Counted from the stretch's first letter, positions 25,923 through 53,717 are shown. The stretch is 64,000 nucleotides of DNA from an uncultured Gammaproteobacteria bacterium (GCA_964348825.1 CAYGDX010000001.1:90909-154908); one strand, 5' to 3'. Translations and numbers: made by a program. The notes: generated by a model from the sequence alone, not told the origin.

Positions 25923-25940
25923 TAATTTTTAAAACATTTA

Positions 25941-36760: not shown

Positions 36761-36855
36761 AAATCATTAATTAAATTTTAGAAATTTTGTTATATTTATT
36801 TCCCATGTTATACTTAAAATACTTTATTTAACCATTTATTATTTTTTATTACATT

Positions 36856-37632
36856 ATGTCTGAACTTTACAATAAGCCAAGTTTGTTTGCCGGTGCTTCA
36901 CCAAAGTTTACATTTATTATGGGTTTGGTAACAGGTGTAGCGGCAGTGAGTTTAATTGGTTTTGTGCTCATCGCTACTTCGGCTACTCCAGGATTATTAG
37001 CTAAGTTAGGTAACAATCTAGCAGTTAATCCATCACCACAAGCGGGTGCGCCTAATGCGCCGGGCGGAGAGGTGCCTCCACCACCACTTGGAAAACAAGA
37101 TGTTAAAGTAAAATCATCAGATTATATTCGGGGGAGCAAAAATGCGCCAGTTACTGTAATTACATATTCCGATTTAGAATGTCCATTTTGTAAAAGATTT
37201 CATCCTGGTGTGCTTAAGTTAATGAATGATTATAAAGGTAAGGTACGTTTAATTTATCGTCATTTTCCATTATCATTCCATGCTAATGCCCAAAAAGAGG
37301 CCGAAGCTTCGGAATGTGTAGGCAAGTTGGGTGGGGCTGACAAGTATTGGAGTTTTATTGATAAAATTTTTGAGCGCACTACCACCAATGGTACTGGTTT
37401 TGCTTTAGATAAACTTGGGCCACTAGCAAAAGAAGTAGGTGTGGATCAAGCCAAATTTCAGAAATGTTTAGATGATTCCGAATTTGCCGCCAAAGTGCAA
37501 ACCGATTTGCAAGAAGGTGCGGGTTTTGGCGTGGGTGGTACACCAACTACATTTGTAAATGGTACACCGGTGGAAGGCGCCGTGCCGTTTGAGCAATTGA
37601 AAGCCGTGGTGGATCAAGAGTTAGCAAAATAA
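36856..37632 (+). CDS. DsbA-family thiol:disulfide oxidoreductase (paralog 2)
   Basis: N-terminal TM, active site LECPFC. Confidence 0.7.
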   Translation: MSELYNKPSLFAGASPKFTFIMGLVTGVAAVSLIGFVLIATSATPGLLAKLGNNLAVNPSPQAGAPNAPGGEVPPPPLGKQDVKVKSSDYIRGSKNAPVTVITYSDLECPFCKRFHPGVLKLMNDYKGKVRLIYRHFPLSFHANAQKEAEASECVGKLGGADKYWSFIDKIFERTTTNGTGFALDKLGPLAKEVGVDQAKFQKCLDDSEFAAKVQTDLQEGAGFGVGGTPTTFVNGTPVEGAVPFEQLKAVVDQELAK

Positions 37633-37666
37633 TATAGAATTAAAATTAGTTTATTTGTTTTTTTGT

Positions 37667-37853
37667 CACTTCTCTAGGAGAAGTAACCAAGAGTCGCAAC
37701 CTTTGTCTCCAAGTCAGGCAGTACTCGTCAAACTCGCTGGTCAGGCCTATGCACATCGACCACAAACACGGCCTGACCGGACGCTCGTTTAACTTCCCTG
37801 CCTACCGGCAGGCAGGCGCTCTGCACTGACTTTACGACGAGGTTGCACAACGG
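37667..37853 (-). repeat. Family C structured element, inverted orientation, with compensatory stem changes
   Basis: Reverse-complement alignment to 36591-36760. Stem ggttcgggc/gcccgaacc is replaced by ggtcaggcc/ggcctgacc (covariation). Extra hairpin cctgcctaccggcaggcagg. Confidence 0.5.
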
Positions 37854-37876
37854 TTAATTTTTCATTTTGATTTTTT

Positions 37877-38476
37877 ATGAATAAGAAAAATTTAATTATT
37901 GCTCTAGTTGTGATAGTAGTAGTTTTGGTTGGTTTGTGGCAATGGAGTCGGCAAGATGCACCTTCATACCCGGAAGTTAATTCGCCGCGGCCATTTTTAG
38001 GGTTAGCAGATTCTAAAGTGGTGGTAGAAGAATTTTCTGATTTCCAATGTCCAGCTTGTAAAGCGGCTCAACCAATAGTTAAGGATTTGATTGAAACTTT
38101 GGGTGGTCGTATAAAATTTAGTTATCGCCATTTCCCTTTACTTACTATTCACACGCAGGCCTTCCGCGCCGCGCTCGCTTCCGAATGTGCTAATGATCAA
38201 GGTAAATTTTGGGAATACCACGATATTTTATTTGAGAAACAGCCAGCATTTTCACCCGAGGATTTAAAGGCCTATGCTGGTCAGCTTGGACTTAAAACGG
38301 ATGATTTTGCGGCTTGTCTTGATTCCCGCGCTAAAAATAAAGTGGTGCGTGAGGAAATGAAAGAAGGTGACAAAAGAAATGTAAACGGCACCCCAACTTT
38401 TTTCTTGAATGGTGAGAAAGTAGAGGATTGGAGTAAACTTAAGGAATTGATTCAGGCGAAGCTAGTCGGCGGTTAG
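37877..38476 (+). CDS. DsbA-family thiol:disulfide oxidoreductase (paralog 3)
   Basis: N-terminal TM, active site FQCPAC. Confidence 0.7.
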   Translation: MNKKNLIIALVVIVVVLVGLWQWSRQDAPSYPEVNSPRPFLGLADSKVVVEEFSDFQCPACKAAQPIVKDLIETLGGRIKFSYRHFPLLTIHTQAFRAALASECANDQGKFWEYHDILFEKQPAFSPEDLKAYAGQLGLKTDDFAACLDSRAKNKVVREEMKEGDKRNVNGTPTFFLNGEKVEDWSKLKELIQAKLVGG

Positions 38477-38680
38477 GTGGTAGCATGTAGCTTGTAGTGG
38501 TTGTCATTGCGAGAAGCGAGTTAAACGAGCGACAAAGCAATCACTTAAAATCACTAATAACTAATTCCTAATATCTAATAATGACTAATGACTAAAATAA
38601 AAAAATTAGACATTCGTCCGCCAGCTGGCGGATTGGGATTTTTTAGAAATTAGATATTAGAGATTAGTCATTCTAAAATA

Positions 38681-39496
38681 ATGTTTACCTTACTCCATAA
38701 CACCATTCCTAGTGCCATCGCTGTAACCATCGGTCCCGTGCCAATTCGTTGGTACGGGATTATGTTAACCATCGCGGTTTTCGCGGGTTATTTTTTAGCG
38801 CGACATTATTTTGGTAAAGCGGGACACAACAAAGCCAAATTTGATAATTTATTTTTGCCGCTAGTGTTAATTGGTTTGCTGGGCGCGCGCCTCACTAATG
38901 TTTTTTTGTTTGAATGGTGGTACTTTAAAAATCACTTATCAGAAATTTTTAATATTTGGCAAGGCGGGTTAGCTTTCCACGGCGCAATTATTTTTGGTGG
39001 AGTTTATTTGTGGCAGTGGTGTAAAAAGCAAAGCATAAATTTTTTATCACTCCTTGATATTTTAGCGCCAGCACTCACAGTGGGACAGGCGATTGGTCGA
39101 TTTGGGAATTATTTTAATCAAGAGCTTTTTGGGTTGCCCACTAATTTGCCGTGGGGAATTCCGATTGCGGAAGATCTCCGCCCCAGCCAATTTAGCATTC
39201 AAGAATATTTTCACCCTACATTTTTATACGAATCAATTGGATTAATAATTTTAACTATTATTTTATTATTACTCGGGCGGCGCACCAAACCAGCTGGTTC
39301 AATTTTTGCTTATTATTTAATTGGTAGTGGGCTATTGCGCTTCGCTTTAGAGTTTATTCGAGTAGATGAACAGTTAATTGTTTGGGGTATTAGGATTGGA
39401 TTACTTATTGGATTTATAACAATCTTAGTTGGTTTGTTTTTGTTATTATATAGAATATATAAGAGTAAAAATGTAAAAATAAAAATCCCTAATTAA
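38681..39496 (+). CDS. lgt: Prolipoprotein diacylglyceryl transferase
   Basis: Lgt signature IRWYGIMLTIAVFAGYFLA and GRFGNYFNQELFG. Multi-TM. Confidence 0.85.
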   Translation: MFTLLHNTIPSAIAVTIGPVPIRWYGIMLTIAVFAGYFLARHYFGKAGHNKAKFDNLFLPLVLIGLLGARLTNVFLFEWWYFKNHLSEIFNIWQGGLAFHGAIIFGGVYLWQWCKKQSINFLSLLDILAPALTVGQAIGRFGNYFNQELFGLPTNLPWGIPIAEDLRPSQFSIQEYFHPTFLYESIGLIILTIILLLLGRRTKPAGSIFAYYLIGSGLLRFALEFIRVDEQLIVWGIRIGLLIGFITILVGLFLLLYRIYKSKNVKIKIPN

Positions 39497-39520
39497 CTTA
39501 GGGATTTTTAGTTTTTCATT

Positions 39521-39565
39521 TGGCGGGCCCGGCCGGATTCGAACCGGTGATCTTCTCCGTGACCC
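39521..39565 (-). repeat. Duplicate of the 3' half of tRNA-Asp (anticodon-stem 3' strand through CCA)
   Basis: Reverse complement tcacGGAGAAGATCACCGGTTCGAATCCGGCCGGGCCCGCCA is identical to the 3' 42 nt of the intact tRNA at 39619-39696. Preceded by hairpin ccccgtagagacacgcttgtcttctacgggg instead of a tRNA 5' half. Confidence 0.6.
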
Positions 39566-39618
39566 CGTAGAAGACAAGCGTGTCTCTACGGGGCACAGCA
39601 GTGAGGTATTTGATTATT

Positions 39619-39696
39619 TGGCGGGCCCGGCCGGATTCGAACCGGTGATCTTCTCCGTGACAGGGAGACGTGTTAACCGGGCTACACCACGGGCCC
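39619..39696 (-). tRNA. tRNA-Asp (anticodon GUC), CCA encoded
   Basis: Reverse complement folds as GGGCCCG-TG-GTGT-AGCCCGGTTA-ACAC-G-TCTCC-CTGTCAC-GGAGA-AGATC-ACCGG-TTCGAAT-CCGGC-CGGGCCC-G-CCA. Perfect 7-bp acceptor stem, U33, A37. One A.C mismatch closing the T-stem. Confidence 0.7.
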
Positions 39697-39739
39697 AGCA
39701 AATAATCAAATTAATTTTGTTTAGGGCTACTGCGCCCCG

Positions 39740-39790
39740 TAGACCAAAAGGTTCTTCGGGGCACCACGGGCCCAGCAAAGGAAAAACAGA
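39740..39790 (-). repeat. Duplicate of tRNA-Asp 5' end interrupted by a ccccg..cgggg hairpin
   Basis: Reverse complement GGGCCCGTGGTG-[ccccgaagaaccttttggtctacgggg cgca]-GTAGCCC matches the first 12 nt of the tRNA. After the hairpin it resumes with D-loop nt GTAGCCC, then diverges. Confidence 0.5.
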
Positions 39791-39898
39791 CGCTTTATTA
39801 ATATAGCAGAAACAATATTTATTTCAAGGGGTATATTAAAAATCCTAAATCCGAAACCCAAACTTCTAAATAAATCAAAAATCCCAATTCCCAAAAGT

Positions 39899-40170
39899 CG
39901 TGTGGCCTCGTCGTAGGGTTTGTACAGAGCGCAAGGCAAACGAGCGTCCGGTTCGGGCGTGCTGTGGTAGTTGTGCACCCGCCTGCCGAAGCTGTTTCCC
40001 CAAGTTAACGTACGATGATTAGTATACTTTAGTTAACTATTAGAAATACTAAAACTAAGTTGGGCTAGCGGCGGGCAGGTAGCCCGAACCAGCTCGTTTG
40101 GCGAGCACTGTTCAAACCCGTAGACAAAGGCCGCGATTCTTGGTTACTTCTACTAAAGAAGTAACAAAAT
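39899..40170 (+). repeat. Family C structured element with about 100-nt hairpin insertion
   Basis: Same 5' (cgtgtggcctcgtcgtagggtttgtacagagcgcaaggcaaacgagcgtccggttcgggcgtgctgtggtagttgtgca) and 3' (agcccgaaccagctcgtttggcgagcactgttcaaacccg...ggttacttctactaaagaagtaac) arms as 36591-36760. Inserted stem-loop cccgcctgccg...cggcgggcaggt. Confidence 0.5.
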
Positions 40171-40174: not shown

Positions 40175-40203
40175 TTGACAACTTTCGAAATTTCCTGTAT
40201 AAT
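40175..40203 (+). promoter_or_regulatory. Consensus sigma-70-type promoter (TTGACA-17 nt-TATAAT)
   Basis: ttgaca at 40175-40180, 17-nt spacer, tataat at 40198-40203. Immediately abuts the 3' end of the family C element. Confidence 0.6.
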
Positions 40204-40237: not shown

Positions 40238-40423
40238 ATGCGGCCGGGATTTCAATCCAATTTTCAAGCTAATTCTAAGAAGCGCGTAGGCGCTGGTTCT
40301 AACTATGTTTGTACATGGCGCAAACCAACCAGTACTAACCTTTGGCCGAGAGTTTGGCAGCAAATTCGTCGCGGCGCACTTTGGATTTTATTTGATGAAA
40401 CTTTTACTTCCACCCACCACTAA
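40238..40423 (+). other. Leader region: 61-codon basic Trp-containing ORF or small ncRNA, ending inside a terminator loop
   Basis: No Shine-Dalgarno. ORF stop codon TAA (40421-40423) lies in the loop of the first terminator hairpin. Region bounded by a perfect promoter and tandem terminators. Confidence 0.3.
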
Positions 40424-40470
40424 GGTGTGGTGTTTTTATTTTAAGCCGTAACACACGGCTTAGTTTTGTT
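40415..40470 (+). terminator. Two tandem rho-independent terminators directly upstream of the 923-aa gene start
   Basis: caccac-taaggt-gtggtg followed by tttttatttt, then aagccgt-aacac-acggctt followed by agttttgtttt. The second ends 3 nt before ATG at 40473. Confidence 0.6.
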
Positions 40471-40472: not shown

Positions 40473-43244
40473 ATGTCATCAGAAAGCGCATTATCATCGA
40501 TGGATAATAGCAGACAACAAGTAGGCGTAGATACTCAAGGAGTAGATGTTTTTAGTATTACGGATGGGAAAAAAGTTACAATAGATCATGAGTCTCAACG
40601 AATTAGAAATACTCCTGATTATGCTAAATATCGAGAGGACTTGGATGAAATTTTTGACTATTGGAAAAATGATCCAGATGGTAGAGTAAGTTTGTTTTCG
40701 ACGTTCAATAAAAAAACAAATGTAGACGAAGAATTATTATCTTTAGCGGCTACGTACTTTGGTGAAGACAAAGAAGTGTTAAAGGCAGTAGAAGAAGATG
40801 AAGTAGAGCCGAGACAGTCGAGTCAGTTTCATAGTTATTTAGATGGAATCAAAAGAGTCATTTCTAAATTAGACAAGCCCAAATTTGTTTTGGAATTAAT
40901 TCTTGGTAGTAATTATAAATACATTGAGGACGAAGGTGAACCAGAAGAAAAGGAAGTGCACATGTTTGTTGATGCTAAAAATAAGGGCAGTATTATAGAA
41001 CTGGCCATAGCGGATTATTTAACAGGTGTGAATTACAGCCCTGTGTCAGAGGTAGAAAGTGATAATGGTAAAATTATACCTGAACCAGTAGTGTCAAATT
41101 CAGATGATACAACTAAAACTGTAACAAATGAGCAGGTTGACGCTGTCACTTCAACAGTAAAGTCAGATAAAGTTGAAGTAAAAAGCTCTGGAGCTGATAG
41201 TAGCCCATTTAAAGCACCCACCCGCGAAGAAATTTTACAAAATAAACCAAGTGAATTAAAAGATCCCTCAAAGGTAGTTAAAAAAGTCGATGATGATAAG
41301 GATAAGGGTAGTAAAGAAAATAAAAAAACAGAGCCGGCTAAAAACGAGAAAAAAGGTGGAGACGGTGGTGATGGAAAAGAAAATGAAAAATCTCGACTCA
41401 AAGAAGAGATTCAATGGTTTTTGCGTCAGGAAAATCTGAAGGGTTTAACCGTTGAACAAATTGAATGGCAGTTTCTAGAGGGAAATTTGTCTTCGTATTA
41501 TAAAGATAAGGATTATTTAAATTCATTGATGGTTCATAGAAATGTTTGGCGAACTGAAGTGGAATCATTTATTGAAACCATTAAACAAGATAAGTATTTC
41601 TCGGCTAAAAAGTTGATAGAAGAATCAGCTGCCTTTTTGGCGCCGTATTCAACTGAAAAACATCAAGCGGGAGAGTGGATCGTATACGATAAAATAAAAT
41701 ATGATTATGATTTATTACCAAAAGAAGTGGTGGATGAAAAAGAAGTAGCGGAAGGAAAAAAGGGCCAAAAAGATTTTCAAATAAAAGCTTTAGAGCAGAT
41801 TTTTAGTAAAATAGTTTATAGTGGCAAATGGAAAAAAGGTAGTCAGGATCAGCCGGAGTTGAAAGGTTCCGAGTTAGATAAAGATTTAGATGTGCGCTTA
41901 TGTTTGTGGTTATTGGAGCGGGCTGGTTTTAGCACAAACTCAAAAGCTGTTGATGTACCAGAAAGTCTAGTGGATGGCGCAACTTTTGATGCTGGTAGCA
42001 GAAGTGGTTTAAGTATTGATAAAAGTTTTGATTGGAAGTTAGAAGATGGTCAGGCAAAACGCGGAAAAAAACAGTTAGGCGCGATTTTTGATAATCACCA
42101 ACCACAAAATGGTTTGCATACTTCGGCAGCATATCAGCTTAATTTTTTCTTACGTGCAGCCGAAGAAATGGGATTATTTGATAACGAAGATAATGATCAT
42201 ACAAAAAAGAATCAAAGCGAATACATTAAATTAGATAGAAAAGTAGTTGATATGATGGTAAATATGTCGATTGATGAAGACAATGGTCGATTAGTAAAAG
42301 ACATTAAGCAGTTTAACGAGAGTGACAAAAATCTACGTGGTTTAGTTGGTAGAATTAAAACCTCTAAATTTGATGATTTACATGATTTTATTATTACTGT
42401 ATTACAATCTGATAGGAATAAAAGTTTGATAGAAAGAGATAATACTAAGAAAGTATATAACAATATATTGGATTATCCATTATCTGATAAATGGTTAGAA
42501 AAATTTAATTTAATCTGGCCAGATACAAAAAATAAAGGTAAATACACTGGTTGGGCATATCAACAAAAAGGCAATATCGAGCAGACTCACCGGATATTTA
42601 TGGTTGAGGGCAGTAAAGATAAATTAAAGAGTGATGAAGAGTTAGAAAAAGAAGGTTGGTTAGTAAGATTTTCTGATAAGAGTGGTAAAGATTTGCGCTT
42701 TGTAGTAAATATTCCTGGATTTGAGGGAGATTTTTATGGCGGCCACGTAGCGGCTCGAGCGCTTGGTTTTGATGGTATGATAAAATATACTCCAGAAAAG
42801 GCAAGTTTTTTAATTAATGTTTTAAAACCCGAATTATCGCTTAATAAAATTGCCGGAGATATTAAACAAGGTCAAATGGTTCGTGATACATTAGATATTA
42901 AACCTCCTAATGCTCAGGAGCTTAAGACAACATTACGTGAGATGTTAAATACATTATCACCCGGTTTGGCTGATAAGGCGCAAGGTAAGCTCAAAGAGTA
43001 TTTATTATTAGAAGACAAGGTGGAAAATGATTGGCAACAAGTAGATAAAGAATTTGTAAAACAAGAGTTAAAAACTTGGTACGATAAATTACCAGCCAAT
43101 AAAAAGCCAACTGATTTAGAGAGTCAGAATCAGGAATTTGAATGGCTTTTGGAATATAAATTAGTTAGCTTGAAAAGTAAGTTGTATAATGAATATATGG
43201 AATTATATAAAAAAATTAAGGATCTAAAATCTAAAGTTAAATAA
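40473..43244 (+). CDS. Hypothetical large acidic protein (923 aa), no signal peptide, no recognised domain
   Basis: Long uninterrupted ORF, Lys/Glu/Asp-rich with low-complexity KDKGSKENKKTEPAKNEKKGGDGGDGKENEK segment. Confidence 0.5.
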   Translation: MSSESALSSMDNSRQQVGVDTQGVDVFSITDGKKVTIDHESQRIRNTPDYAKYREDLDEIFDYWKNDPDGRVSLFSTFNKKTNVDEELLSLAATYFGEDKEVLKAVEEDEVEPRQSSQFHSYLDGIKRVISKLDKPKFVLELILGSNYKYIEDEGEPEEKEVHMFVDAKNKGSIIELAIADYLTGVNYSPVSEVESDNGKIIPEPVVSNSDDTTKTVTNEQVDAVTSTVKSDKVEVKSSGADSSPFKAPTREEILQNKPSELKDPSKVVKKVDDDKDKGSKENKKTEPAKNEKKGGDGGDGKENEKSRLKEEIQWFLRQENLKGLTVEQIEWQFLEGNLSSYYKDKDYLNSLMVHRNVWRTEVESFIETIKQDKYFSAKKLIEESAAFLAPYSTEKHQAGEWIVYDKIKYDYDLLPKEVVDEKEVAEGKKGQKDFQIKALEQIFSKIVYSGKWKKGSQDQPELKGSELDKDLDVRLCLWLLERAGFSTNSKAVDVPESLVDGATFDAGSRSGLSIDKSFDWKLEDGQAKRGKKQLGAIFDNHQPQNGLHTSAAYQLNFFLRAAEEMGLFDNEDNDHTKKNQSEYIKLDRKVVDMMVNMSIDEDNGRLVKDIKQFNESDKNLRGLVGRIKTSKFDDLHDFIITVLQSDRNKSLIERDNTKKVYNNILDYPLSDKWLEKFNLIWPDTKNKGKYTGWAYQQKGNIEQTHRIFMVEGSKDKLKSDEELEKEGWLVRFSDKSGKDLRFVVNIPGFEGDFYGGHVAARALGFDGMIKYTPEKASFLINVLKPELSLNKIAGDIKQGQMVRDTLDIKPPNAQELKTTLREMLNTLSPGLADKAQGKLKEYLLLEDKVENDWQQVDKEFVKQELKTWYDKLPANKKPTDLESQNQEFEWLLEYKLVSLKSKLYNEYMELYKKIKDLKSKVK

Positions 43245-43245
43245 T

Positions 43246-43572
43246 ATGGATAAAGCTAATGAGTTGTTTGACAATTATTTAAACCAAGTATTAGATAAAT
43301 CCTCTGGTGGTGTTTTGTCTTCCGAGCAAATTACGGCTTTAAGGCAGGAGTTAAGTGGTGTACTAGAAGAAAAATTATATTTAACTTCACTCAATGCTTT
43401 AAATGAGGCAGATACTGCTGCTTATGCGGAATTTATACAAACGGCCGATGATGTTTCGCTTCCCGCACAAATAGAATTTTTTAGTAAACATATTCCCGAG
43501 TATCAAACATTTTTAAAACAGGTTTTAGATGGGGCAGTGGAGGAGTTTGTGAAGTTGAGCGTGTCAAAATAA
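43246..43572 (+). CDS. Small acidic hypothetical protein (108 aa), chaperone-like
   Basis: Start 2 nt after the upstream stop (translational coupling). Acidic helical protein. Confidence 0.4.
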   Translation: MDKANELFDNYLNQVLDKSSGGVLSSEQITALRQELSGVLEEKLYLTSLNALNEADTAAYAEFIQTADDVSLPAQIEFFSKHIPEYQTFLKQVLDGAVEEFVKLSVSK

Positions 43573-43635
43573 CATTAGATCGCTAAATCATTAAAACAAA
43601 AAATTGATTTAATGTTCTAATGTTTAAGTGTTCTA

Positions 43636-43821
43636 ATGAAAGTTGTTAAACATATGACTGACGAAGAAAAAATAAAAAAAATTGAAAGTATTTACGCTGA
43701 TTTTGAACGTAAGTTAGCGCGTCATCGTACACACGTACAGCAGGTAGTGCATAGTACTTTACAGCAAATTGATAAAGAAAAAGCCAACACCATTTTAGAA
43801 TCATTTAAACAAAGCAAATAA
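43636..43821 (+). CDS. Small hypothetical protein (61 aa)
   Basis: ORF between family D and family B repeats. Helical, charged. Confidence 0.25.
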   Translation: MKVVKHMTDEEKIKKIESIYADFERKLARHRTHVQQVVHSTLQQIDKEKANTILESFKQSK

Positions 43822-43959
43822 ATTTGAGCATGTAGTTTATTGTAGGTGTCATTCCCGCGTAGGCGGGAATCCAGAAACAAATTACCTTGAATTGGTATTA
43901 AAAAATTATTAATATATTTTATAGATCCCTGATCAGGTCGGGGATGACAGTAAATTTTT

Positions 43960-46900
43960 ATGTCTGAAACCCCCAAACCATCACCAACTGAAAATCAAAC
44001 TAAGGTTGAGCTTAAATCTCATCCAGAACTTCGCCGCGATGTGTTAAAAGAAAAAGGTGTGGGAGTCTCGAAATTACTTGATAGTATTTATGATAAGGTG
44101 AAAGGTGGGTTAACTGGATTTAAGGATTTGATGACTGAATATACAAGCTTACTTGAAAAAGATAAAGCAGATACTTCTGTTACTCAACAAACAGCTATTG
44201 ACGAAGCTGAAACGGAAATTAAGAGAGTGCAGCGGCAAGTGGAAGAAGATAAAAAGGAATTGCAATATAAATTAGCAGAAATTGCTGAAGTGAGGGATAA
44301 CTTCAATAAAGTTGTTTGGAGGGAAGAGTTAAGACGTGACCCGATATTGAATGACGAATATGGTGTTAAATTTAGTCGAATTTTAAGCGCTGACGAAGAA
44401 AAAGTTATTGATCAAGTTTTAGACGATCAGAGATTAGAAATTGGAAAAAAGGCCGAAACAACTAGTAGGTTTAAAAAAATTCCGATTAATGAAAATGCGG
44501 AACGTAGTGATTATGTTGCTAATTATATTGCCAATGGTTTGTTGCGTCCAGAATATATAGAAGAAAGAAAGAGAGTTTATAAAAAGAAAGGACTGCCAGT
44601 TGAAGGTGTAAAAGTTGAGCCAGTTGTTGATCCTGTACCACAAATTATAGCCGAACCCGCAGCACCAGATGTCGTTATTACGCCAGTTGAACCAGAGGTT
44701 ATTTTAAATACCGAATCTGTTGCGCCAGTAGTTAATCCAACTGGCCCTGAAGTCGTGTCAGTTATTCCGACTGCTGAAGTAGAGCCGGTTGTTTTGTCAG
44801 AGGGGGAAGAAACAAAAAAAGTGAATGAATATTTAGAAAAGATTAATAGAGGTGGAATTTTAACTCCTGAAGAGCAAATATACTTAAATGAATTTACAAG
44901 AAAGCAGGAAGAAAGAGATCAAGCTGGTCGCGCACCAATTATTTCCACCGAAACTCCACCAGCTACCACAGAAGCCACTCCAAAAAAATGGGGTAAGGTT
45001 GAGGTGGCTAAATTAATGAATGAATTGAAGTTAAAAGATTTACCAGAATTAAAATATGATTGGCAAGTTAAATCTAATCAAGTGGAGGTGTTAGATGATA
45101 ATGGTAGTGTCAAGCGTGATAAAAAAGGTAATGCCATCACTGAATCATTTAACGAATTTACAGTAAATCTTAAATCTGAAAGTAAGGATGAACTTGCTAA
45201 CTTGTTAGATAAAAAAAATATACCAGAAGAAATAAAGAGTGATATTCTAAAAAATTTAATACAGACGATTGAAGATAGAATGTCTAAAAGTTTAGATGGG
45301 CAAGCTAAATTAGAAGAAGCCAAATCATTAAAATATCACAAGAAGCAAATTGGTTTGCAGTTCGGATTGCAATTAGCATTGAGTGGTGGGATTGCTATGA
45401 CACGTTGGCTATCTGGCGTCGCGGAAGCGGCTAGTCATGCTATTGGCAATGTAGCGCGAGTCGGTGGTTTTAGTGTTATGGGCGCAGGTGCTGGTGGCGG
45501 TCGGTTTTTGATTAACCGTGGATTGATGCCAGAATTAAATAGTTTAATATTAGGTAAAGAGAATGAATCATCTTTGCATAAAGCGGGTGTAGAAGTGGTG
45601 AATAAATTTTTTACCACTGATACAGTTAAAACTTTAGGTAAACAGGTTTTGAGTGAATTATTGGCTGAAAAATTAAAAGGTCATGTGGCTTTAACGTCAG
45701 AAACTAATATTGATACTATAAAAAGTTTATTAAAAGAGCATTGTGGATCGGCTTTTGAAAATGAAGCTCAAATAGAATCTTTTAGTCGGGAACTGGCTGC
45801 CATTGAACAGATTAAACAAGGTAATCAAAAACAGTTGGCTAAGTACATGGAGAGGTTGAAATTAAACGGTTTTTTAAATAGCGCTACTAAATCAGCTATC
45901 GCTGGTGGTACCATGGCCGCAGTAATGGCTTGGGTGCCTGGGTTAGGACAAGTTTGGGGTGGCGCCTTTGGTGCATTCACAATGGGTGGGCAAATTAAAT
46001 CAGCTTTGCGGCGCATGGGTATTGAAGAGCGTTATCAAATAATGCGTGAACAGATTTTAGGATTAGAGCAGAATAGAAGTGTAACCAAAAAGATTTTAAA
46101 AAAAGTAAGTTTTGGTTGGGGTGAAAAAAAGATTGCTGGTGCTGGTAATATTATGACTGAGGTTAATGGTCAAAAACGGGCCAACGAGGTGATGGCTTAT
46201 TTAGTTAGCGGTTTATTGGTGAATGATCCATTGCTTCAAGCACGCGCTGAAAGTTTAATTCAGCAAGCGGCCGAGCAGGGTATTATGCCTGAGCAAGCGG
46301 TGGTTGAAGCTAGAGTAAAAGCTTTAGAAAAAAAGTTAAAAATAGAACGTGCTACTGAAAATGTGGCTTATGCCGTAGGTACAGCAGTTGGCGCGGCAAC
46401 AAGTTGGGCGGCCATGGCGGCTAGTGAATTATTTAAAGGTGGGTCTGGCAGTAAGGTAGTAGTAGAAGCTGGCACTAGTAAGGGTTCACAAAATGCAGGT
46501 GAATTAAATACCGAAACTCATAATATAAATAAAGGGCCAGGAGTTCAAGCTGAACATCCGCCAATCGCCATCAAAATTGAAGGAAATATTGATACCGTGA
46601 GTGAAGCTGTTGATAAAGCTTTGCATGGCGCACCAACTACTACTCAAGATAATTTTGTTCACAAAGAATTAGGTGATGATGTTGCTATTACTGATTCTAA
46701 TCGTCACGGTTTGGTTGTTCAAGCAGTGCGTGAATTTAGTATCCGTAATATAAAAATGGGCGATGGTAATGACTTACTAAATCGTATTCATAATGGCGAT
46801 ACCGTGTTGCTTAAAAGTGATGGTGCAGTAGAAGTTAAAGGTACTTCTGGCATTAATCCAGAAGCTGTGGCCGAAAGTACTCTTCGTAAATCAGCGGCTG

Positions 46901-48936
46901 AACTTCACACTGAAACACAAACTGTTGAGGTAGAAAATAATCCACTTAAAAATGCAATTTGGCAAGAAGGATTAGTAGATGGTAAGTCAGTTAAATTTAC
47001 CGAGTTACCATTTGATTATAAAACTCACGATTTAAATGCTTATGCGCAAACCGATTCAGATACTTGGAATGAAGCGCGAAATTTACCTGATACAATTGAA
47101 CTTCACGATCGCGCCGGTAACGTAATTGATTATTGTCCGGTAGACCCTAGTGATACACGTAGTTTGAGCGAAGTATTGGCGGAAGCTAATAAGAGTTTTG
47201 GTACAGTTGATTCTCGTCTTCACGAAATTACCGAGGCCATGCCAAAATCTGGTTATTTTATGTCGGCCGGATCTAGGACTGAAATTGCTAGTTGGGCAAA
47301 AGTAGATATTCATAGTGGCGCACCGCTTTCCGAAACACAAATACATGATTTAAATCATTTAGATAATATTGTTGGTAATCACGCCACTGAATATTTAGGT
47401 AATTCAGCTTTTAAGTCGTTCTTAAGTTCTAATTTTGAAAATTTAAATGCTTCACGCGCTTGGGCTGATTTTCAAGCGGTAAAGTCATTACACGGTCAAG
47501 GGTTTGGGAATGTGGATATAAAAAGTGTTGATTTTATAAACAAAACTGCGGGCTGGGTGCGGATTGGCGAAAATAATTCCGGTAGTGGTTTTATGGCGCA
47601 AGTGGAAAATGGTGCGCTTCATACTTCATTGAAATCACCACTCACCGGCTCATCGATTGAAGTTTCCTTACCCAAAGATAAGGTGTTTAATTTTGAGATG
47701 GTGAACCGAGGCGTGAATCAAGCGATTGAGCAACAATCAGCGGAAATGAATGTAAAAAGTAATTTAGAAAGTATGGTAGGAAGCTCAGAGGCGAATGAAA
47801 TTTTGAAATTACCAGCTGGTTCAAATATAGAGCAGGAAATTTTGGATATTGCTAAAAATAAAGTTTTGTTTGTCACTGTGTCCGATGGCAACGGCCCTGA
47901 AGCAGTGAAATATTTAAATGGTTTAACTGATTTAACTAAAGGTGAGGGAACGCTTGCAGAACAATTAAGCAAAGCGGTGGTGCAAGGCAGGGTAGCGAGT
48001 GCAGTAGAATCAGTCAAATCAACTCCCGAGGTTGTTTATAAATCAACTGGAGATTTTAAAACTGAAGCTGGGTTTAAATCTGGAGTGGTAGTACCGCAAG
48101 ACGAAATAAACCCAAGTCGCCAAAATCCAGAAGAAGTGATAAAGCAAGCCCAAGTTGATATTGATAAACAAACTATAAATGCTATGAAAGGTGAGGGTAA
48201 ATATGCGTATGAGCCAAAGCCAGTAGAATTAAAATCTCAAACGCATCAAGATATAATAAGGGAAGAAGTTAAGCAAGATGTTAATTTAGCTGAGCAGGCT
48301 GGGGCTGGGGGCACAGCTGATGTTGCTGAACACGCCAGTGATGTATTTAACGAGCTAGATAATACTCAAGCCGCTTATGAGGCGCTTCACGATACTTCAC
48401 TTTCCGCAGCTGATAAATTCGCTGTCTTGATGTCGCTTAAATTAACTGATGGCGGTCGGCCGTATATGTTTGAAGGTGGCACTGAAGGTATTAGCTTAAA
48501 AGATGGTAAATATTTGTATTATGATCATGGCACAGCCCATGAATTAACACCGGATAATATAAATAAAATTGCTAGTGGCGAAATAGAACAAACTACTCAG
48601 GTTGATGCTGAAAAAACTTCAGTGGTTGAACAAGTAGAAACACCAATAGATAATGTTTCTACAGAGTTGAAAGATATTTTAGGGGATCACCTAAAAGGTA
48701 TTACACCTGATAACGTGTCTGATTATTCGGCCTTCTTTAATGGTTCGGCTGATCAAGCTAAATTAGCTTTTGATCATTTAGGTGAAGTAATTCGTGGTGG
48801 TGGTGATATAAAGAGTCAGGTACTTGCTTCACCAGAATTAACTTCTGCCACTAAAATAATTTTACAAGTGGAAGGTGGTGCCTTGGGTAATCCAGCAGCT
48901 AAAGAATTGTATAAAGATTTGTTTAGTAATAAATAA
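43960..48936 (+). CDS. Giant hypothetical protein (1658 aa) with internal glycine-zipper hydrophobic segments; tape-measure-like architecture
   Basis: Coiled-coil N-terminal third. Central Gly/Ala-rich hydrophobic segments (IGLQFGLQLALSGGIAMT..., AIAGGTMAAVMAWVPGLGQVWGGAFGAFTMGG, VAYAVGTAVGAATSWAAMAA). Long acidic C-terminal half. No signal peptide, no catalytic motif recognised. Confidence 0.5.
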   Translation: MSETPKPSPTENQTKVELKSHPELRRDVLKEKGVGVSKLLDSIYDKVKGGLTGFKDLMTEYTSLLEKDKADTSVTQQTAIDEAETEIKRVQRQVEEDKKELQYKLAEIAEVRDNFNKVVWREELRRDPILNDEYGVKFSRILSADEEKVIDQVLDDQRLEIGKKAETTSRFKKIPINENAERSDYVANYIANGLLRPEYIEERKRVYKKKGLPVEGVKVEPVVDPVPQIIAEPAAPDVVITPVEPEVILNTESVAPVVNPTGPEVVSVIPTAEVEPVVLSEGEETKKVNEYLEKINRGGILTPEEQIYLNEFTRKQEERDQAGRAPIISTETPPATTEATPKKWGKVEVAKLMNELKLKDLPELKYDWQVKSNQVEVLDDNGSVKRDKKGNAITESFNEFTVNLKSESKDELANLLDKKNIPEEIKSDILKNLIQTIEDRMSKSLDGQAKLEEAKSLKYHKKQIGLQFGLQLALSGGIAMTRWLSGVAEAASHAIGNVARVGGFSVMGAGAGGGRFLINRGLMPELNSLILGKENESSLHKAGVEVVNKFFTTDTVKTLGKQVLSELLAEKLKGHVALTSETNIDTIKSLLKEHCGSAFENEAQIESFSRELAAIEQIKQGNQKQLAKYMERLKLNGFLNSATKSAIAGGTMAAVMAWVPGLGQVWGGAFGAFTMGGQIKSALRRMGIEERYQIMREQILGLEQNRSVTKKILKKVSFGWGEKKIAGAGNIMTEVNGQKRANEVMAYLVSGLLVNDPLLQARAESLIQQAAEQGIMPEQAVVEARVKALEKKLKIERATENVAYAVGTAVGAATSWAAMAASELFKGGSGSKVVVEAGTSKGSQNAGELNTETHNINKGPGVQAEHPPIAIKIEGNIDTVSEAVDKALHGAPTTTQDNFVHKELGDDVAITDSNRHGLVVQAVREFSIRNIKMGDGNDLLNRIHNGDTVLLKSDGAVEVKGTSGINPEAVAESTLRKSAAELHTETQTVEVENNPLKNAIWQEGLVDGKSVKFTELPFDYKTHDLNAYAQTDSDTWNEARNLPDTIELHDRAGNVIDYCPVDPSDTRSLSEVLAEANKSFGTVDSRLHEITEAMPKSGYFMSAGSRTEIASWAKVDIHSGAPLSETQIHDLNHLDNIVGNHATEYLGNSAFKSFLSSNFENLNASRAWADFQAVKSLHGQGFGNVDIKSVDFINKTAGWVRIGENNSGSGFMAQVENGALHTSLKSPLTGSSIEVSLPKDKVFNFEMVNRGVNQAIEQQSAEMNVKSNLESMVGSSEANEILKLPAGSNIEQEILDIAKNKVLFVTVSDGNGPEAVKYLNGLTDLTKGEGTLAEQLSKAVVQGRVASAVESVKSTPEVVYKSTGDFKTEAGFKSGVVVPQDEINPSRQNPEEVIKQAQVDIDKQTINAMKGEGKYAYEPKPVELKSQTHQDIIREEVKQDVNLAEQAGAGGTADVAEHASDVFNELDNTQAAYEALHDTSLSAADKFAVLMSLKLTDGGRPYMFEGGTEGISLKDGKYLYYDHGTAHELTPDNINKIASGEIEQTTQVDAEKTSVVEQVETPIDNVSTELKDILGDHLKGITPDNVSDYSAFFNGSADQAKLAFDHLGEVIRGGGDIKSQVLASPELTSATKIILQVEGGALGNPAAKELYKDLFSNK

Positions 48937-48945
48937 TTTTCTATT

Positions 48946-49890
48946 ATGCTCGAGCGAGGAATGTCACCCGAAGATATTAATTTTACTGCACCAGCGGAAG
49001 AACAACCAAATAATTCAGATAAAAAATTTTCTCGTCGTGATTTTACTAAATTGTTAGGTTTGGGTTTGGCAGGGCTAGTAGCGGAAAAAGCTTTAAGTCC
49101 GCTAGCGCGTGCCGCGGAAATGGTATCTAGCGAAAGTAGTGGAGCAGAAGTTGAAGCTGAAATGTTGACGCCGGTAGAACAGCGTGAAGTAGAAAGTAAA
49201 GTGCAATCTGAAATAAATAAAGCTCGCGAACTGATTCTTAACCAAGATTACAGTTCTTTTTTGGGTAATAAATTTTTAGTGGCGGCTTTGTATTATTCAG
49301 ATAATTTTATGAATAATGAGTTAACGTCAGAAAAAATTAAAAATGATCCACCACGTCAAATAATTGCCGGCCTCAAAACATATATTACACCAGATGTAAA
49401 AAAGCAATATGTAGCCATGCTTAAATTATGGTCACGTAATATAGAATTTAAAGATCCTGTTAAACCACTCGAGCGAATGGATTTTGGACGTGGTACCAAT
49501 CATAGCGATGCGGTGGATTTATTTATTGCTGAAGGGTCAGATATAAAATCAGTTTATAGTGGCATAGTAGTACACGCCGAAGGTGGTTTTAGGTCGCGTG
49601 ATCCTTTGTCAGTTAGTTCTCGCAAAGGTGGTAATACGGCAATAGTTTTTAATGCCGAGAAGAATGAATTTTATCGTTATTGTCATATGGAAAAAGTATT
49701 AGTGGAGCCGGGTGAAAGAATAAAGGCGGGAGCTTTGGTGGGTAAAGTTGGACACACAGGTTTGAATGCGGGTAAACGTGGGCATGGTGAACATTTGCAT
49801 TTTGAAATAAATAAATTTGATCCTAGAGATGGTTCAACTATTGCCTTGCCCGCTCCCGAAATAAAAACTCGTTTACGAGCGATTGAATAA
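48946..49890 (+). CDS. M23-family (LytM/lysostaphin-like) metallopeptidase with twin-arginine-type signal peptide
   Basis: N-terminal SRRDFTKLLGLGLAGLVA (Tat-like S-R-R-x-F-x-K). C-terminal M23 motifs HxxxD-like region and YCHMEKVLVEPGERIKAGALVGKVGHTG...HLHFEI. Confidence 0.7.
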   Translation: MLERGMSPEDINFTAPAEEQPNNSDKKFSRRDFTKLLGLGLAGLVAEKALSPLARAAEMVSSESSGAEVEAEMLTPVEQREVESKVQSEINKARELILNQDYSSFLGNKFLVAALYYSDNFMNNELTSEKIKNDPPRQIIAGLKTYITPDVKKQYVAMLKLWSRNIEFKDPVKPLERMDFGRGTNHSDAVDLFIAEGSDIKSVYSGIVVHAEGGFRSRDPLSVSSRKGGNTAIVFNAEKNEFYRYCHMEKVLVEPGERIKAGALVGKVGHTGLNAGKRGHGEHLHFEINKFDPRDGSTIALPAPEIKTRLRAIE

Positions 49891-49990: not shown

Positions 49991-50015
49991 ATATTACAGT
50001 TGTGGAATTCCCAAT

Positions 50016-50753
50016 TTATTGGGATTTTTTACAACCTTTATACCGGCAATGTTCTCCGGTACATTCTTTTTGGTGTCGCTCAGAGGCAGCGGCACAAATT
50101 TTCTCATATGCGGTACGTTGTACCTCATTGAAATCGTCTGTGTCCACTTCATCTGAAAATGCTTCAGATGCTACAACAATCTCCAAATTGCTAATTCGGT
50201 CACTGTTGCCATCAGTCTTGTTGTTAAGACCGATAATTACATCTTCGGCGTTGCTTAATCTGATTGCGTGTTTGTCAACGCGTTCGGTTAAGCTTGCCAA
50301 GTCGGTGGCATATTCGTCGGAAAGTGATAACCCTTCGTTGACGAGCGAGTCAATTCTCGCTTGTAATTTAGCAAATACGCCGTTTTTGAATCCCGGCATA
50401 TTGACCCAACGTTTGTCACCCATCTTCCTTAATGTATCTAACAGTTTGGCATAGGCCGCACTGTCAAGATTGATTGTGACGGACGGTGCTGTTGTTGGGG
50501 GGCAAGGGCTTGTACGTGCTCCAGTTCCGCCAGCTTTCAATGCGGCGAGTTCTTTTTCAAGAGCATCGAGGCGTTTTTCGAGTTTTTCGCGGTTGTGACG
50601 CATTGTGCCGAGAAATGCCGCGGTGGTGTCAGAATCAAGCGATGAATTGACAACGTGTGTGCCGTCTTTGCATAAAACCTGCGCGGACGTGGTATTGAAG
50701 TTGAAGATCATCGCGAAAGCGACGAGTAATGTAATGAATAATAAGTTTTTCAA
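50016..50753 (-). CDS. Secreted coiled-coil protein with Cys-rich C-terminus
   Basis: Signal peptide MKNLLFITLLVAFAMIFNFNTTSAQ. Coiled-coil EKLEKRLDALEKELAALK. C-terminal CTGEHCRYKGC. Local GC content visibly higher than the flanks. Confidence 0.5.
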   Translation of the reverse strand: MKNLLFITLLVAFAMIFNFNTTSAQVLCKDGTHVVNSSLDSDTTAAFLGTMRHNREKLEKRLDALEKELAALKAGGTGARTSPCPPTTAPSVTINLDSAAYAKLLDTLRKMGDKRWVNMPGFKNGVFAKLQARIDSLVNEGLSLSDEYATDLASLTERVDKHAIRLSNAEDVIIGLNNKTDGNSDRISNLEIVVASEAFSDEVDTDDFNEVQRTAYEKICAAASERHQKECTGEHCRYKGCKKSQ

Positions 50754-50833
50754 AGTGTGTTCCTTTATAATAATTGATTTGGATTAAAATTTTGAATTAA
50801 AGTTATGATCAGTATAATAGAATTTAATTTTTG

Positions 50834-51802
50834 TTAATCTTCAGGTGGGCCGTCGGTATTGTGACCCTTGACTGGCGCTGGCTTTGGCTTCGGAGGATCG
50901 GGTTGTGGTACAACCTCTTCCTCTTCTTCATTCCCAACGTTTTCGTCAACGGGTTGATCAACTGTCGGCGCCGGTAACTGCTCGGGGAGATTATTAATTT
51001 GCTCTTGCAAGTCGTTGACTTGCTGTTGCAAAGCTTTATAGTCACTTTGCGATGCTTTACCCGTGCCGGAAAATCCACCAACGGAAATGATAGCAATTAA
51101 TACGATAAAAAGAGCAGAGAATAAGATGACCCCGAGTCGTTGCCAGAAGACTGGTTTTGCAGCTAATTTAGCAGCGTCTTCTGCTGACTTTTCTGCAAGT
51201 TTTTTCCACCCTTCTGCATCATCTGCGCTTTGCTTTGCAGCACCTGCAGAATTTGCTGATTCGCCAGCAGAAGTGTACGCATTGTTTGCGTGCGTTTCTG
51301 CGTCACCTGCGAGTTTCCGAACATTTTTTTCAGCCGTCTGGGAAAATTCCGTAAACGTTTCTTTTTCGGTTCTCACTAACGATTTAATACCATTAGTTCC
51401 TTCCTCAAAAAGACGTTCCAAACTTTCTTTGGCGCTCTGATTGGTATTTTCAAGGGCGGATTTTTGTTCGTCAAGATAATTTTTGACTTTTAAAATCGTC
51501 GCGAACGTTGTATCCGTCATTAATAAATCAGCGATGGATACATCTTTCTCGTACAGCTTCAACTGTTCGTCGAAGCTTAGAACCGAGACGAAGTTTACAA
51601 TTTCATTAGCCGCTACAGCACGATAGGCGTTGATGGCATGAGCCTGCGCGTCCGCCTGTGTTGAATCAGGAGGCGCTGTTTGCATGAATTCGTTTTCAGC
51701 TTGATTGAAAACTTGTTCAAACTCATCCTGTTTTTCCGGAAGAAGAATCGCGACAATCCGTCGCAAAACTTCAATGGTGATTGAATATAGATAATTTTTC
51801 AA
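50834..51802 (-). CDS. Membrane protein: cytoplasmic helical domain, one TM, Pro/Glu-rich extracytoplasmic tail ending HNTDGPPED
   Basis: TM VILFSALFIVLIAIISVGGF. Tail ...EEEEVVPQPDPPKPKPAPVKGHNTDGPPED shares its terminal motif with the next gene. Confidence 0.5.
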   Translation of the reverse strand: MKNYLYSITIEVLRRIVAILLPEKQDEFEQVFNQAENEFMQTAPPDSTQADAQAHAINAYRAVAANEIVNFVSVLSFDEQLKLYEKDVSIADLLMTDTTFATILKVKNYLDEQKSALENTNQSAKESLERLFEEGTNGIKSLVRTEKETFTEFSQTAEKNVRKLAGDAETHANNAYTSAGESANSAGAAKQSADDAEGWKKLAEKSAEDAAKLAAKPVFWQRLGVILFSALFIVLIAIISVGGFSGTGKASQSDYKALQQQVNDLQEQINNLPEQLPAPTVDQPVDENVGNEEEEEVVPQPDPPKPKPAPVKGHNTDGPPED

Positions 51803-51878
51803 AGTGTGATTCCTTTATAATATGTTACGAAATTTTTGAATTAGTTAAAACAGAATAATGAAATGAATTGAAATTTTG

Positions 51879-52241
51879 TTAATCTTCCGGTTCACCTTTT
51901 GGATTGTGAGTTCCGGAATTTCCGCTTCCACCCACCGCCGGCGCTGATTGCTCAGTGCTTTGGGGAGTGGTTGACGGATTTTTTACGGTTTTTTGTAAGC
52001 CGAAGTAAATGGCTAAACCGAGAACAATGACGGCGAGGATGATCAGAGCAGGTATTAACCATGCTGGTGACTTCTTTGTCGTTGGTTGGTTTTGTTGGCC
52101 AACCAGTTGTCCATTTCCGCCGAGGTCAATGTTTAAGGTTTGCTCTTCAATGATTGCTGTCAATTTAATTTTGACATTACCACCTAAGCGTCCTTTAATT
52201 AACTCGTCGATCGGAACGATTAATTCTTTAGTGTTGTTCAT
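51879..52241 (-). CDS. Small membrane protein with C-terminal tail ending HNPKGEPED
   Basis: TM WLIPALIILAVIVLGLAIYFGL. C-terminus GSGNSGTHNPKGEPED parallels the HNTDGPPED of the 50834-51802 product. Confidence 0.45.
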   Translation of the reverse strand: MNNTKELIVPIDELIKGRLGGNVKIKLTAIIEEQTLNIDLGGNGQLVGQQNQPTTKKSPAWLIPALIILAVIVLGLAIYFGLQKTVKNPSTTPQSTEQSAPAVGGSGNSGTHNPKGEPED

Positions 52242-52621
52242 ACGAATTTTCCTTTCGTTCGTATGTGTTCTATTACTTTCAGGGATCGGTAACCTGCCGA
52301 TTCTGTGTAGCTAGAACGTGTTTTTGAATATTTCACGGACATGGAAATTTCCCAAGCCGTGGCACGAATTAGAACCTGAACTCAAAGTAGGTTAAACCCT
52401 TGCTGCGCAGGCAAGGTCTTTGAGACAGGTTCATTTATATAAAATTGTTAAGTTGCGTTCATTACAGTAAGTGCACCCCACGCATCTTTAACATATCATG
52501 ATAGCGCATCTAGCAAATTCTGTCAAGACCTGTGGAATGAAAAAGTGAGTTTTTGGGCTAATATTAGATAAATTAATTCCCAAGACCCAAGCCCCAAATC
52601 CCAAAAACATTAGATTAATTA

Positions 52622-52850
52622 GGGTTTGTCGTTGTGCCGCCCTGTCGTAGGGTTTGTAGACATCATTTAATTTTAGTGACTTAAAAAAGTAACGCCGCAG
52701 TGAGACCCTCAGAACTTGCGTGTTGTGGTCGCTCTGCATAGCAAGTTCGTTTGGTCGAACCGGCGTTACCACTCGGGCGTGCCAGGGATGGGGTTGTTAG
52801 GGGTAAGGGACGGGCTTCGCCTAACTCCGAGTCCCTACCCCTAACGAAAT
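52622..52850. repeat. Diverged family C-related structured element
   Basis: Shares cctgtcgtagggtttgta and gttcgtttggtcgaaccggcg blocks with 36591-36760. Followed by a family A fragment at 52855-52900. Confidence 0.4.
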
Positions 52851-53066
52851 TAATAAGAGATTGCTTCGCTCGTCTGATGACTCACTCGCAATGACATTTA
52901 TGTTTGTATTATACCCCTCGGCTTGGCTCGGGGTTATCCGCTTTTTACAATAAATAAATTCTAGAAAGCGGATAAAAAAACAGAGTTGGAAAATTGAGGA
53001 TTAAATTAATTTTAATCCAGAAAATTCCAACTCTATAGATTATTCGTCGATGACTTATAGTGCCAT

Positions 53067-53717
53067 CTACTTTAAATCCGGACTAAAGGTAAGCCCAAAT
53101 ACGAAAGCAAAGTTGATTATACGTTCCTCCGTGTTGTTTATAAAATTAACATTTGTTACCCCACTCGCCCCTGCGCCAACTTTTACATTGAGTAATCCTA
53201 ACTTTTCAAATCTATGTGTGATAGCGAAAGCTACGTTTGGAGTTACTGTTTTCTTTTGGTTTTTATCCGTGCGATCATAAGCAAAGACCGCGCCGAATGA
53301 AATTTCTGTCCATAGATTTTTCTTTACCTTTGAAGGTGAGAAAATTAATTCAGCACCAAAGCCCCAAGGGTAATATCCACCAGCGTCATCGTTTTCATAA
53401 TAGCCAACAATGTTGCCAAATGCAGTTAATTTGCCAGCCCAGTTTTGAATTGGCCAAGAAAGTCCGATACTAGGTGCCGCTAAGTTAAGTGGTGCGCGTC
53501 CAGTGCCAAGTATGGTTACGCCGGAGAATCCAACCCATAAGCGGCCGCCATTGAAAGTAGTGGATTTTGGTTTTGCAACTTCGTTATCGTTGCAACAGTC
53601 ACAACAATCCGTATGATTATAATTGTGGCTGTGTTTTGGTTTGGAGCATTCTTGCGCCAAGCTGATTTGTGGAAGTGATAATAAAATCACAGCCACGAGT
53701 ATGTATGCGTATTTCAT
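53067..53717 (-). CDS. Putative outer-membrane beta-barrel protein (OmpA/OmpW-like fold), signal peptide
   Basis: Signal peptide MKYAYILVAVILLSLPQISLAQE. Alternating hydrophobic beta-strand patterns (AFAITHRF, INFAFVFGLTF). Cys cluster CCDCC near N-terminus. Confidence 0.45.
   Translation of the reverse strand: MKYAYILVAVILLSLPQISLAQECSKPKHSHNYNHTDCCDCCNDNEVAKPKSTTFNGGRLWVGFSGVTILGTGRAPLNLAAPSIGLSWPIQNWAGKLTAFGNIVGYYENDDAGGYYPWGFGAELIFSPSKVKKNLWTEISFGAVFAYDRTDKNQKKTVTPNVAFAITHRFEKLGLLNVKVGAGASGVTNVNFINNTEERIINFAFVFGLTFSPDLK

Follow-up and report, generated by a model that had tools for sequence, protein, structure and literature searches.

Glycine zippers mediate membrane translocation in the type VI secretion system (T6SS) effector Tde1 and are common to the tape-measure proteins of phage tails (PMC10240207). 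A very long helical protein with segments of this kind, small acidic open reading frames (ORFs) upstream and a peptidoglycan hydrolase are features that tape-measure modules share with the locus analysed in the current study, a block of uncharacterised genes in a 64-kb stretch of DNA (GCA_964348825.1, CAYGDX010000001.1:90909-154908; hereafter the window, to the whole of which coordinates refer). The genes are named by length or family as p923, p108, p61, p1658 and M23, the last being a separate gene for the hydrolase. Unlike tape-measure modules, the locus adds the p923 family, a protein of the Pfam family DUF5663, which has no described function, and a basic protein of 61 amino acids (aa). 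Judged from its gene order and its relatives, the locus is a chromosomal, lineage-specific operon of Patescibacteria, and neither random ORFans nor the remains of a phage. By the same comparison, its conserved core is a module of five genes, which encode a very basic protein of ~60 aa, an acidic soluble protein of 600–1000 aa (the p923 family), an acidic DUF5663 protein of ~105 aa, a helical protein of ~55 aa and a mostly helical giant protein of 1200–1900 aa (the p1658 family).

The original prediction for this DNA had listed ORFs of 923, 108, 61 and 1658 aa in that order, followed by a gene for an M23 peptidase (314 aa), and all were found where it placed them. They lie on the + strand as one co-oriented, tightly spaced block, with successive gaps of 1, 63, 138 and 9 nucleotides (nt): p923 at 40473–43244 (isoelectric point, pI, 5.3), p108 at 43246–43572 (pI 4.3), p61 at 43636–43821 (pI 9.6), p1658 at 43960–48936 (pI 5.2) and the 314-aa M23 gene at 48946–49890 (pI 6.4). 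The ORFs of 923 and 1658 aa are not chance, given their length at ~37 % G+C and the presence of homologues elsewhere. A promoter-like site on the + strand at 40175–40203 (TTGACA-17-TATAAT) agrees with the consensus at 12/12 positions, the sole such match between 39.4 and 54.5 kb; identical hexamers and spacer precede the orthologous block in L001 and L002, and the operon probably starts at this site. Two terminator-like hairpins with T-runs on the + strand (40415–40432 and 40441–40463), between the basic 61-aa gene and the start of p923, are also kept in L001 and L002, and possibly function as a partial terminator or attenuator. A further terminator-like hairpin with a T-run (50009–50024, + strand) follows the M23 gene and is the probable operon end. 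Because of the perfect promoter match and this hairpin, the operon most likely extends from ~40175 to the hairpin at 50009.

Related loci, designated L001–L015, were compared (15 contexts in all, of which 14 are distinct for the DUF5663 count). A search with the locus pattern TQDNF[IV]H[KN] recovered two genome and three metagenome loci, a sample that under-represents the taxonomic breadth. Looking for the block in relatives had been proposed with the original prediction; it proves to be conserved with synteny, which a random ORFan is not. In 10 of the 14 distinct loci the giant gene is immediately preceded by the DUF5663 gene, usually with a helical ORF of 53–61 aa between them, and a p923-family gene is found further upstream in six loci (the window, L001, L002, L004, L010 and L015). 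The order in L001 is GatA-VTT-3xDsbA-Lgt-61-970-DUF5663-58-giant. L010 has Lgt, a small ORF, a 923-like gene of 1036 aa, a 107-aa gene and the giant, and in L004 a 923-like gene, DUF5663 and the giant are followed by SmpB-IF3-ArgRS, as in the window. The module thus has a conserved chromosomal position: Lgt precedes it in the window, L001 and L010, and SmpB-IF3-ArgRS comes next in the window and in L004.

The first gene of the module, at 40238–40423 (+ strand, 61 aa, pI 11.4; motifs SW[RK] and RG..[WVI][IL][LFI]FD[ED]), lies just upstream of the region delimited by the original prediction and was absent from it. Orthologues of 58–61 aa precede the 923-like gene in L001, L002, L010 and L015. 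Between L015 and L010, 23 residues are identical, 13 of them with different codons; this use of different codons for identical residues in distant orthologues favours a protein-coding function over an RNA. The protein has no match in Pfam or PHROGs. A leader RNA or riboswitch was also considered for this region, and a two-sequence RNA fold gave a plausible multi-stem structure, but there was no Rfam match, and the codon-level conservation favours protein.

That the two giants act jointly is best supported by a natural fusion in L012. The fused protein, P0040 (1937 aa), contains the p923 core at aa 447–1034 (E = 4.9e-24), Gly-rich segments and, at aa 1560–1685, the 120-aa domain that defines the p1658 family. 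In addition, the motif KFSRxLSAxE, which is near the N-terminus of p1658, is carried by upstream proteins of L010 and L004 at their C-terminus, so that domain boundaries shift from gene to gene within the module. L004 also carries, at 2722–7386, a gene for an extra, unrelated protein of 1554 aa without a Pfam domain, placed after the DUF5663 gene and before the p1658 homologue. The form F[ST]RxLSAxE of the motif, otherwise located near the p1658 N-terminus, is at the C-terminus of this protein.

A HMMER search with p1658 aa 1–1200 against 1.84 billion representative proteins (E ≤ 1e-3) found 41 relatives, most of 840–1940 aa, which share the ~120-aa domain. Where named, they are 'hypothetical protein' of Falkowbacteria, Kerfeldbacteria, Parcubacteria or the 'Patescibacteria group'; to our knowledge, the first three have no cultured representatives. 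Neither giant matches a described family, in agreement with the earlier description of the genes as uncharacterised. For p1658 there was no match in Pfam, PHROGs, NCBIfam or PDB sequences, and a Pfam scan of 36 aligned family members, the query included, detected no domain in any of them.

From its N-terminus, p1658 consists of a variable, highly charged region (aa 1–200; ~20 % D+E and 18 % K+R in the N-terminal region), a Pro/Val-rich linker (aa ~215–280), a small alpha/beta unit (aa 343–460), a helical region with three uncharged Gly/Ala-rich segments, the 120-aa domain, a helical domain (aa 1041–1197) and a lineage-specific C-terminus. The three central segments, noted in the original prediction, were found, and the peptide it quoted, AIAGGTMAAVMAWVPGLGQVWGGAFGAFTMGG, is present. 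They are encoded on the + strand at 45346–45495 (aa 463–512), 45880–45978 (aa 641–673, with a GxxxG-type zipper and an uncharged run of 35 residues) and 46360–46431 (aa 801–824). Across 37 aligned relatives these positions are depleted in charge and contain ~45 % Gly/Ala/Ser, the three-segment pattern being kept in position. In the close relatives linked to DUF5663, the segments reach Kyte–Doolittle values of 1.7–1.8 with uncharged runs of 20–29 residues, typical of membrane helices.

The 120-aa domain (46552–46914, + strand; aa 865–985) has a predicted beta-alpha-alpha-alpha-beta-beta-alpha order and the pattern I.GK.DT.SEA...TQDNFIH...NR..L...AVRKLS..N...NLVYEGN.V.L..DGSWEV. It has no PDB sequence or profile match. 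LysM was tried as an identity for this domain and was rejected, with an hhalign probability of 0.4 % against an unvalidated sequence of the MltD LysM and no match among PDB profiles. An AlphaFold model of p1658 aa 336–1200, built with 37 sequences, was usable (predicted local distance difference test score, pLDDT, 68), and its confident parts are aa 343–460, aa 865–983 (pLDDT 87–96) and aa 1041–1197. Fold searches with the model returned long-helix noise only.

The acidic, soluble p923 is the founder of its family. Its N-terminal 200 aa are conserved, and a core at aa ~440–830 is common to relatives; homologues are present in L001, L002, L004, L010 and L015, and fused within the L012 giant. 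It has no match in Pfam, PHROGs, NCBIfam or PDB, and an AlphaFold model from three sequences was unusable (pLDDT 34). By eye, p923 contains D-x-D-L-D, F-D-A-G, F-D-N-H-Q and Y-G-G-H..A in the order seen in DHH/DHHA1 phosphoesterases (NrnA, RecJ, GdpP). However, these motifs are degenerate, L004 lacks the DHH triad and the window has DNHQ in its place, and the core has no Pfam match at E ≤ 10 and no PDB profile match. Against Bacillus subtilis NrnA, the sequence of which was validated against 5j21, hhalign gave a probability of 1.2 %, and the sole aligned segment of the core falls just past the DHH position. The DHH/DHHA1 assignment is not supported, and the likeness is a lead only.

The acidic product of p108, described as chaperone-like in the original prediction and starting 1 nt after the p923 stop codon, is assigned to DUF5663 (PF18908) with a marginal score of 24.0 bits against a cutoff of 23.7. 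The assignment is strengthened by a local profile and by the orthologues in other loci, which also reach the gathering score of the family. A DUF5663 profile gave nothing significant against PDB, and DUF5663 is mentioned in no paper of the searched library. The link to a giant gene adds context for the family without explaining it. The basic, helical p61 is conserved from Met-7 (nt 43654); homologues of 54–58 aa occupy the same position in L001, L002, L008 and L015, and there are ORFs of similar size in L009 and L013.

The 314-aa protein is an M23 peptidase, as first proposed, with a Pfam Peptidase_M23 (PF01551) score of 57.7 bits against a cutoff of 28.7 and M23 matches in PDB. The twin-arginine-like leader also read from it is present: S29-R-R-D-F-T-K35 (nt 49030–49050), read directly, fits (S/T)RRxFLK and is followed by the weakly hydrophobic LLGLGLAGLVA and then by an AxA site (ARA|AE). 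About 28 residues precede the motif, so that the true start may be Met-6, unless the n-region is unusually long. No twin-arginine translocation (Tat) gene was found among the scanned ORFs of the window, which covers 64 kb of a contig of at least 469 kb; Tat systems have been reported in some genomes of the candidate phyla radiation (PMC9166423). In common with LytM, lysostaphin, Csd/Pgp3 and ShyA, the protein has an M23 domain with an intact HxH motif (H283-L-H285), and the conserved His of Y-x-H is H247. It differs from these endopeptidases in the Tat-type leader and in the first metal motif, H186-S-D-A-V-D191, which is one residue longer than HxxxD. Since this motif reads HxxxxD, catalytic competence appears uncertain; phmmer instead pairs the HSGTD of its target with A195-EGS-D199. 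No M23 homologue was found in the sequence of any of the 15 related loci. In those for which the downstream side is sequenced (L003, L004, L009, L010, L013, L014 and L015), the genes that come after the giant are unrelated and on the other strand. L001, the closest relative, ends inside the giant gene. On this comparison, the M23 gene is a genome-specific neighbour or add-on, outside the conserved module.

Sequence divergence is much faster in the two giants than in the housekeeping genes next to them. At the amino acid level, proteins flanking the module are 83–97 % identical between the window and L001, where p923 is 42 % and p1658 75 % identical. The corresponding values are 53–62 % for flanking proteins, 31 % (over 178 aa) for p923 and 26 % for p1658 in L004, and 52–67 %, 24 % and 29 % in L010. 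The divergence from L001 is mosaic: in p923, aa 1–200 are 74–96 % identical and aa 200–800 16–48 %, and in p1658, aa 1–200 are ~25 % identical and aa 250–900 80–100 %. This suggests allelic, cassette-like replacement of specific segments by recombination. The module could be an undescribed, Patescibacteria-specific trans-envelope or host-contact apparatus, an idea to which we give a low probability; in it, the membrane-embedded giant and its cytoplasmic partner would carry hypervariable, recombining cassettes (the p1658 N-terminus and the p923 core) that determine which partner or host is recognised.

On the joint conservation, the one fusion, the segments and 120-aa domain of the family and the fast evolution, we tentatively build a model of topology, assembly and role. 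The module would encode a complex that is anchored in the membrane and belongs to the envelope of the producing cell itself, with a role in envelope organisation or remodelling or in surface contact; this is the interpretation we prefer, at somewhat less than an even chance. The products of the five genes would form one complex, in which the glycine-zipper segments fix the giant in the cytoplasmic membrane of the same cell. Signal peptides are absent from all five conserved proteins, and p923, p108 and both small proteins also lack a hydrophobic segment. Because signal peptides are missing, and because the fusion puts the p923 core N-terminal to the segments, the N-terminal part of the giant and its p923 partner are predicted to be cytoplasmic. 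The DUF5663 protein and the small proteins may be adaptors or assembly factors. The part of the giant beyond the third segment, comprising the 120-aa domain and the C-terminus, would reach the wall side, where the M23 endopeptidase of this genome, exported on its own, may be recruited. Genes for envelope-related proteins recur as neighbours of the module (Lgt, LspA, DsbA, OmpA-like, YceG, Wzz/Wzy, FtsK and MraZ/RsmH).

Several observations weigh against this interpretation. Kyte–Doolittle values of the segments in p1658 itself are only 1.0–1.26, below those of a classical transmembrane helix, segment 1 contains charged residues, and AlphaFold renders all three as low-confidence helices. About one-third of proteins with the 120-aa domain have no uncharged run of more than 17 residues, and the domain is for this reason not tied to membranes. 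The 36 aligned p1658-family members have no recognisable extracellular domain (Ig-like, SLH or LysM). Adjacency of an M23 gene to the giant is seen in this genome only, and the recurring envelope neighbours could be coincidence in small, densely packed genomes. No informative homology was found that points to an activity, and the topology proposed for p1658 is a guess.

Some of the same observations fit a purely cytoplasmic or peripheral-membrane helical scaffold, cytoskeleton-like or associated with the nucleoid or with division, in which the Gly/Ala segments pack helices against one another instead of spanning a membrane. The lack of signal peptides, the modest hydrophobicity of the p1658 segments, the relatives without a long uncharged run and the acidic, Cys-poor composition are all consistent with such a scaffold, as are the FtsK or MraZ/RsmH neighbours at some loci and the very basic 61-aa partner, which could bind nucleic acid. 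The membrane-like segments of the DUF5663-linked relatives and the conservation of the three-segment pattern in position argue against it, and a scaffold is considered unlikely. Even if it were correct, the module would still provide the first functional context for DUF5663.

A contact-dependent translocator or effector, in which the giant and its partners are exported, the glycine zippers enter a host membrane and the M23 peptidase opens the host wall, is rather improbable. The precedents are proposals for tape-measure proteins and for Tde1 (PMC10240207). With Tde1, p1658 shares repeated small-xxx-small motifs in uncharged Gly/Ala-rich stretches. The two are not homologous, however; the segments of p1658 are in the middle of the protein, their membrane activity is a prediction, and neither a T6SS nor another secretion system is linked to the locus. 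An exported-type M23 peptidase does adjoin the giant here, but none was found at the related loci with downstream sequence. Cultivated Patescibacteria are episymbionts, and very fast mosaic divergence is the pattern that determinants of host specificity or of an arms race should show; helical scaffolds under weak constraint would also evolve fast. Export is made less probable by the missing signal peptides, and searches for toxin and enzymatic domains detected none. A secretion ATPase or channel is missing from the operon, and no ATPase domain of type IV (VirB4/VirD4) or type VII (EssC-type) secretion is present in the cluster proteins. Within the window, secretion ATPases are confined to PilB/PilT at 20–23 kb, in a type IV pilus cluster that ends ~10 kb upstream of the operon, behind housekeeping genes.

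It is highly improbable that p1658 is a tape-measure protein, with p108 and p61 as its chaperones and the M23 protein as a tail-associated lysin. The likeness noted at the outset is generic, a long helical protein with hydrophobic Gly-rich segments being present without being diagnostic of tape measures. Some tape-measure PHROGs do contain M23 domains, and the 314-aa protein matches two of these, through its M23 part only. The giants and the small proteins upstream have no match in PHROGs, Pfam (DUF5663 aside) or NCBIfam; there was no tblastn hit among 50,697 phage records and 72,556 plasmids, IMG/VR yielded no relative in a pattern scan, and no similarity to viral structures was found in BFVD. 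Pfam and PHROG scans of the cluster, its neighbours and the unannotated ORFs of the window detected housekeeping, type IV pilus and envelope genes but no tail tube, sheath, baseplate, portal, capsid, terminase or integrase, which agrees with the original remark that capsid, terminase and portal genes are missing. The layout of a G/GT frameshift is also absent, because p108 and p61 share a reading frame and are divided by 63 nt that contain stop codons, and in relatives the two are separate and non-overlapping. The locus is, moreover, syntenic between the housekeeping genes Lgt/tRNA-Asp and SmpB/ArgRS in genomes with flanks that are only 52–62 % identical, and a peptidoglycan hydrolase after the giant is a pattern specific to this genome. 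The original analogy with a tape measure or tailocin has no sequence, profile or fold support, and the tempting reading of the locus as a cryptic tailocin is corrected. As the same prediction proposed, the block is a reasonable candidate for an undescribed system of the envelope or of cell interaction; it was the resemblance to a phage tail that went unsupported.

Patescibacteria, which may account for one-quarter of the diversity of bacteria, seem to live on the surface of other cells, and almost nothing is known of their lineage-specific envelope and host-contact proteins. Large hypothetical proteins are common in their genomes, which tempers surprise at the present giants. A literature search found no description of a matching system, and the module matches no described family or system at the level of sequence, profile or fold. 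It is new in the sense that it is unclassifiable with present tools, which is not proof of a new way of working. Linkage and fusion, glycine-zipper segments, the 120-aa domain and mosaic evolution turn a set of 'hypothetical proteins' into a defined five-gene module, and its synteny, fusion and mosaic evolution make it a concrete target. If the module is indeed an envelope or contact machine, it would represent a new kind of bacterial cell-surface system and offer a handle on host specificity in Falkowbacteria, Kerfeldbacteria and Parcubacteria.

As judged from its gene content, the window is an ordinary Patescibacteria chromosome. The cluster, the G+C content of which matches that of the rest of the window, is preceded by the type IV pilus cluster, LigA, GatA, VTT, three DsbA-like genes, Lgt and tRNA-Asp, and followed by four minus-strand ORFs, SmpB, tmRNA (transfer-messenger RNA), IF3, L20, ArgRS and IleRS. 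The pilus cluster (15861–29424) appears complete, with PilM, PilB, a second T2SSE-type (PilT-like) ATPase, PilC, a prepilin peptidase and at least two N-methyl pilins. The three tandem DsbA-like thioredoxin genes and Lgt (35794–39496) are kept in L001 and partly in L010.

The tRNA-Asp gene (39619–39696, minus strand) is flanked by partial copies of itself, comprising 55 nt of the 3' half and trailer at 39509–39563 and 18 nt of the 5' end at 39762–39779. Complementary hairpin arms surround it at 39585–39601 and 39727–39743. These partial copies look like scars of site-specific recombination. A tRNA-linked genomic island was considered and rejected: the 3' end of the tRNA points away from the cluster, the copy of the 3' half is more distant still, the tRNA is reversed in L001 and L002 with the same operon, and the base composition is that of the surroundings. 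Between the tRNA and the promoter, at 39890–40140, is a GC-rich imperfect inverted repeat of ~250 nt (arms at ~39928–39945 and 40092–40109), which has no Rfam match and is absent from the orthologous intergenic region of L001 and L002. This may be a small insertion resembling a miniature inverted-repeat transposable element, or a structured RNA.

Downstream of the operon, the four minus-strand ORFs (50016–53717) each encode a signal peptide or single transmembrane segment and a coiled coil, and have no homologue in the related loci. One of them, at 50834–51802, matches tail-fibre PHROGs (E = 3e-8 over aa 106–227), probably due to coiled-coil or low-complexity sequence. At the other end of the window, at 11006–12649 on the minus strand, a 547-aa protein has a C-terminal Por_Secre_tail domain (type IX secretion sorting) and SdrD-B/CarboxypepD_reg-like domains. 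Patescibacteria are thought to be without an outer membrane, and Por_Secre_tail is therefore unexpected. SmpB (54460–54936) adjoins the tmRNA gene at 55027–55408, which was missed by ARAGORN and identified by Rfam with 72 bits.

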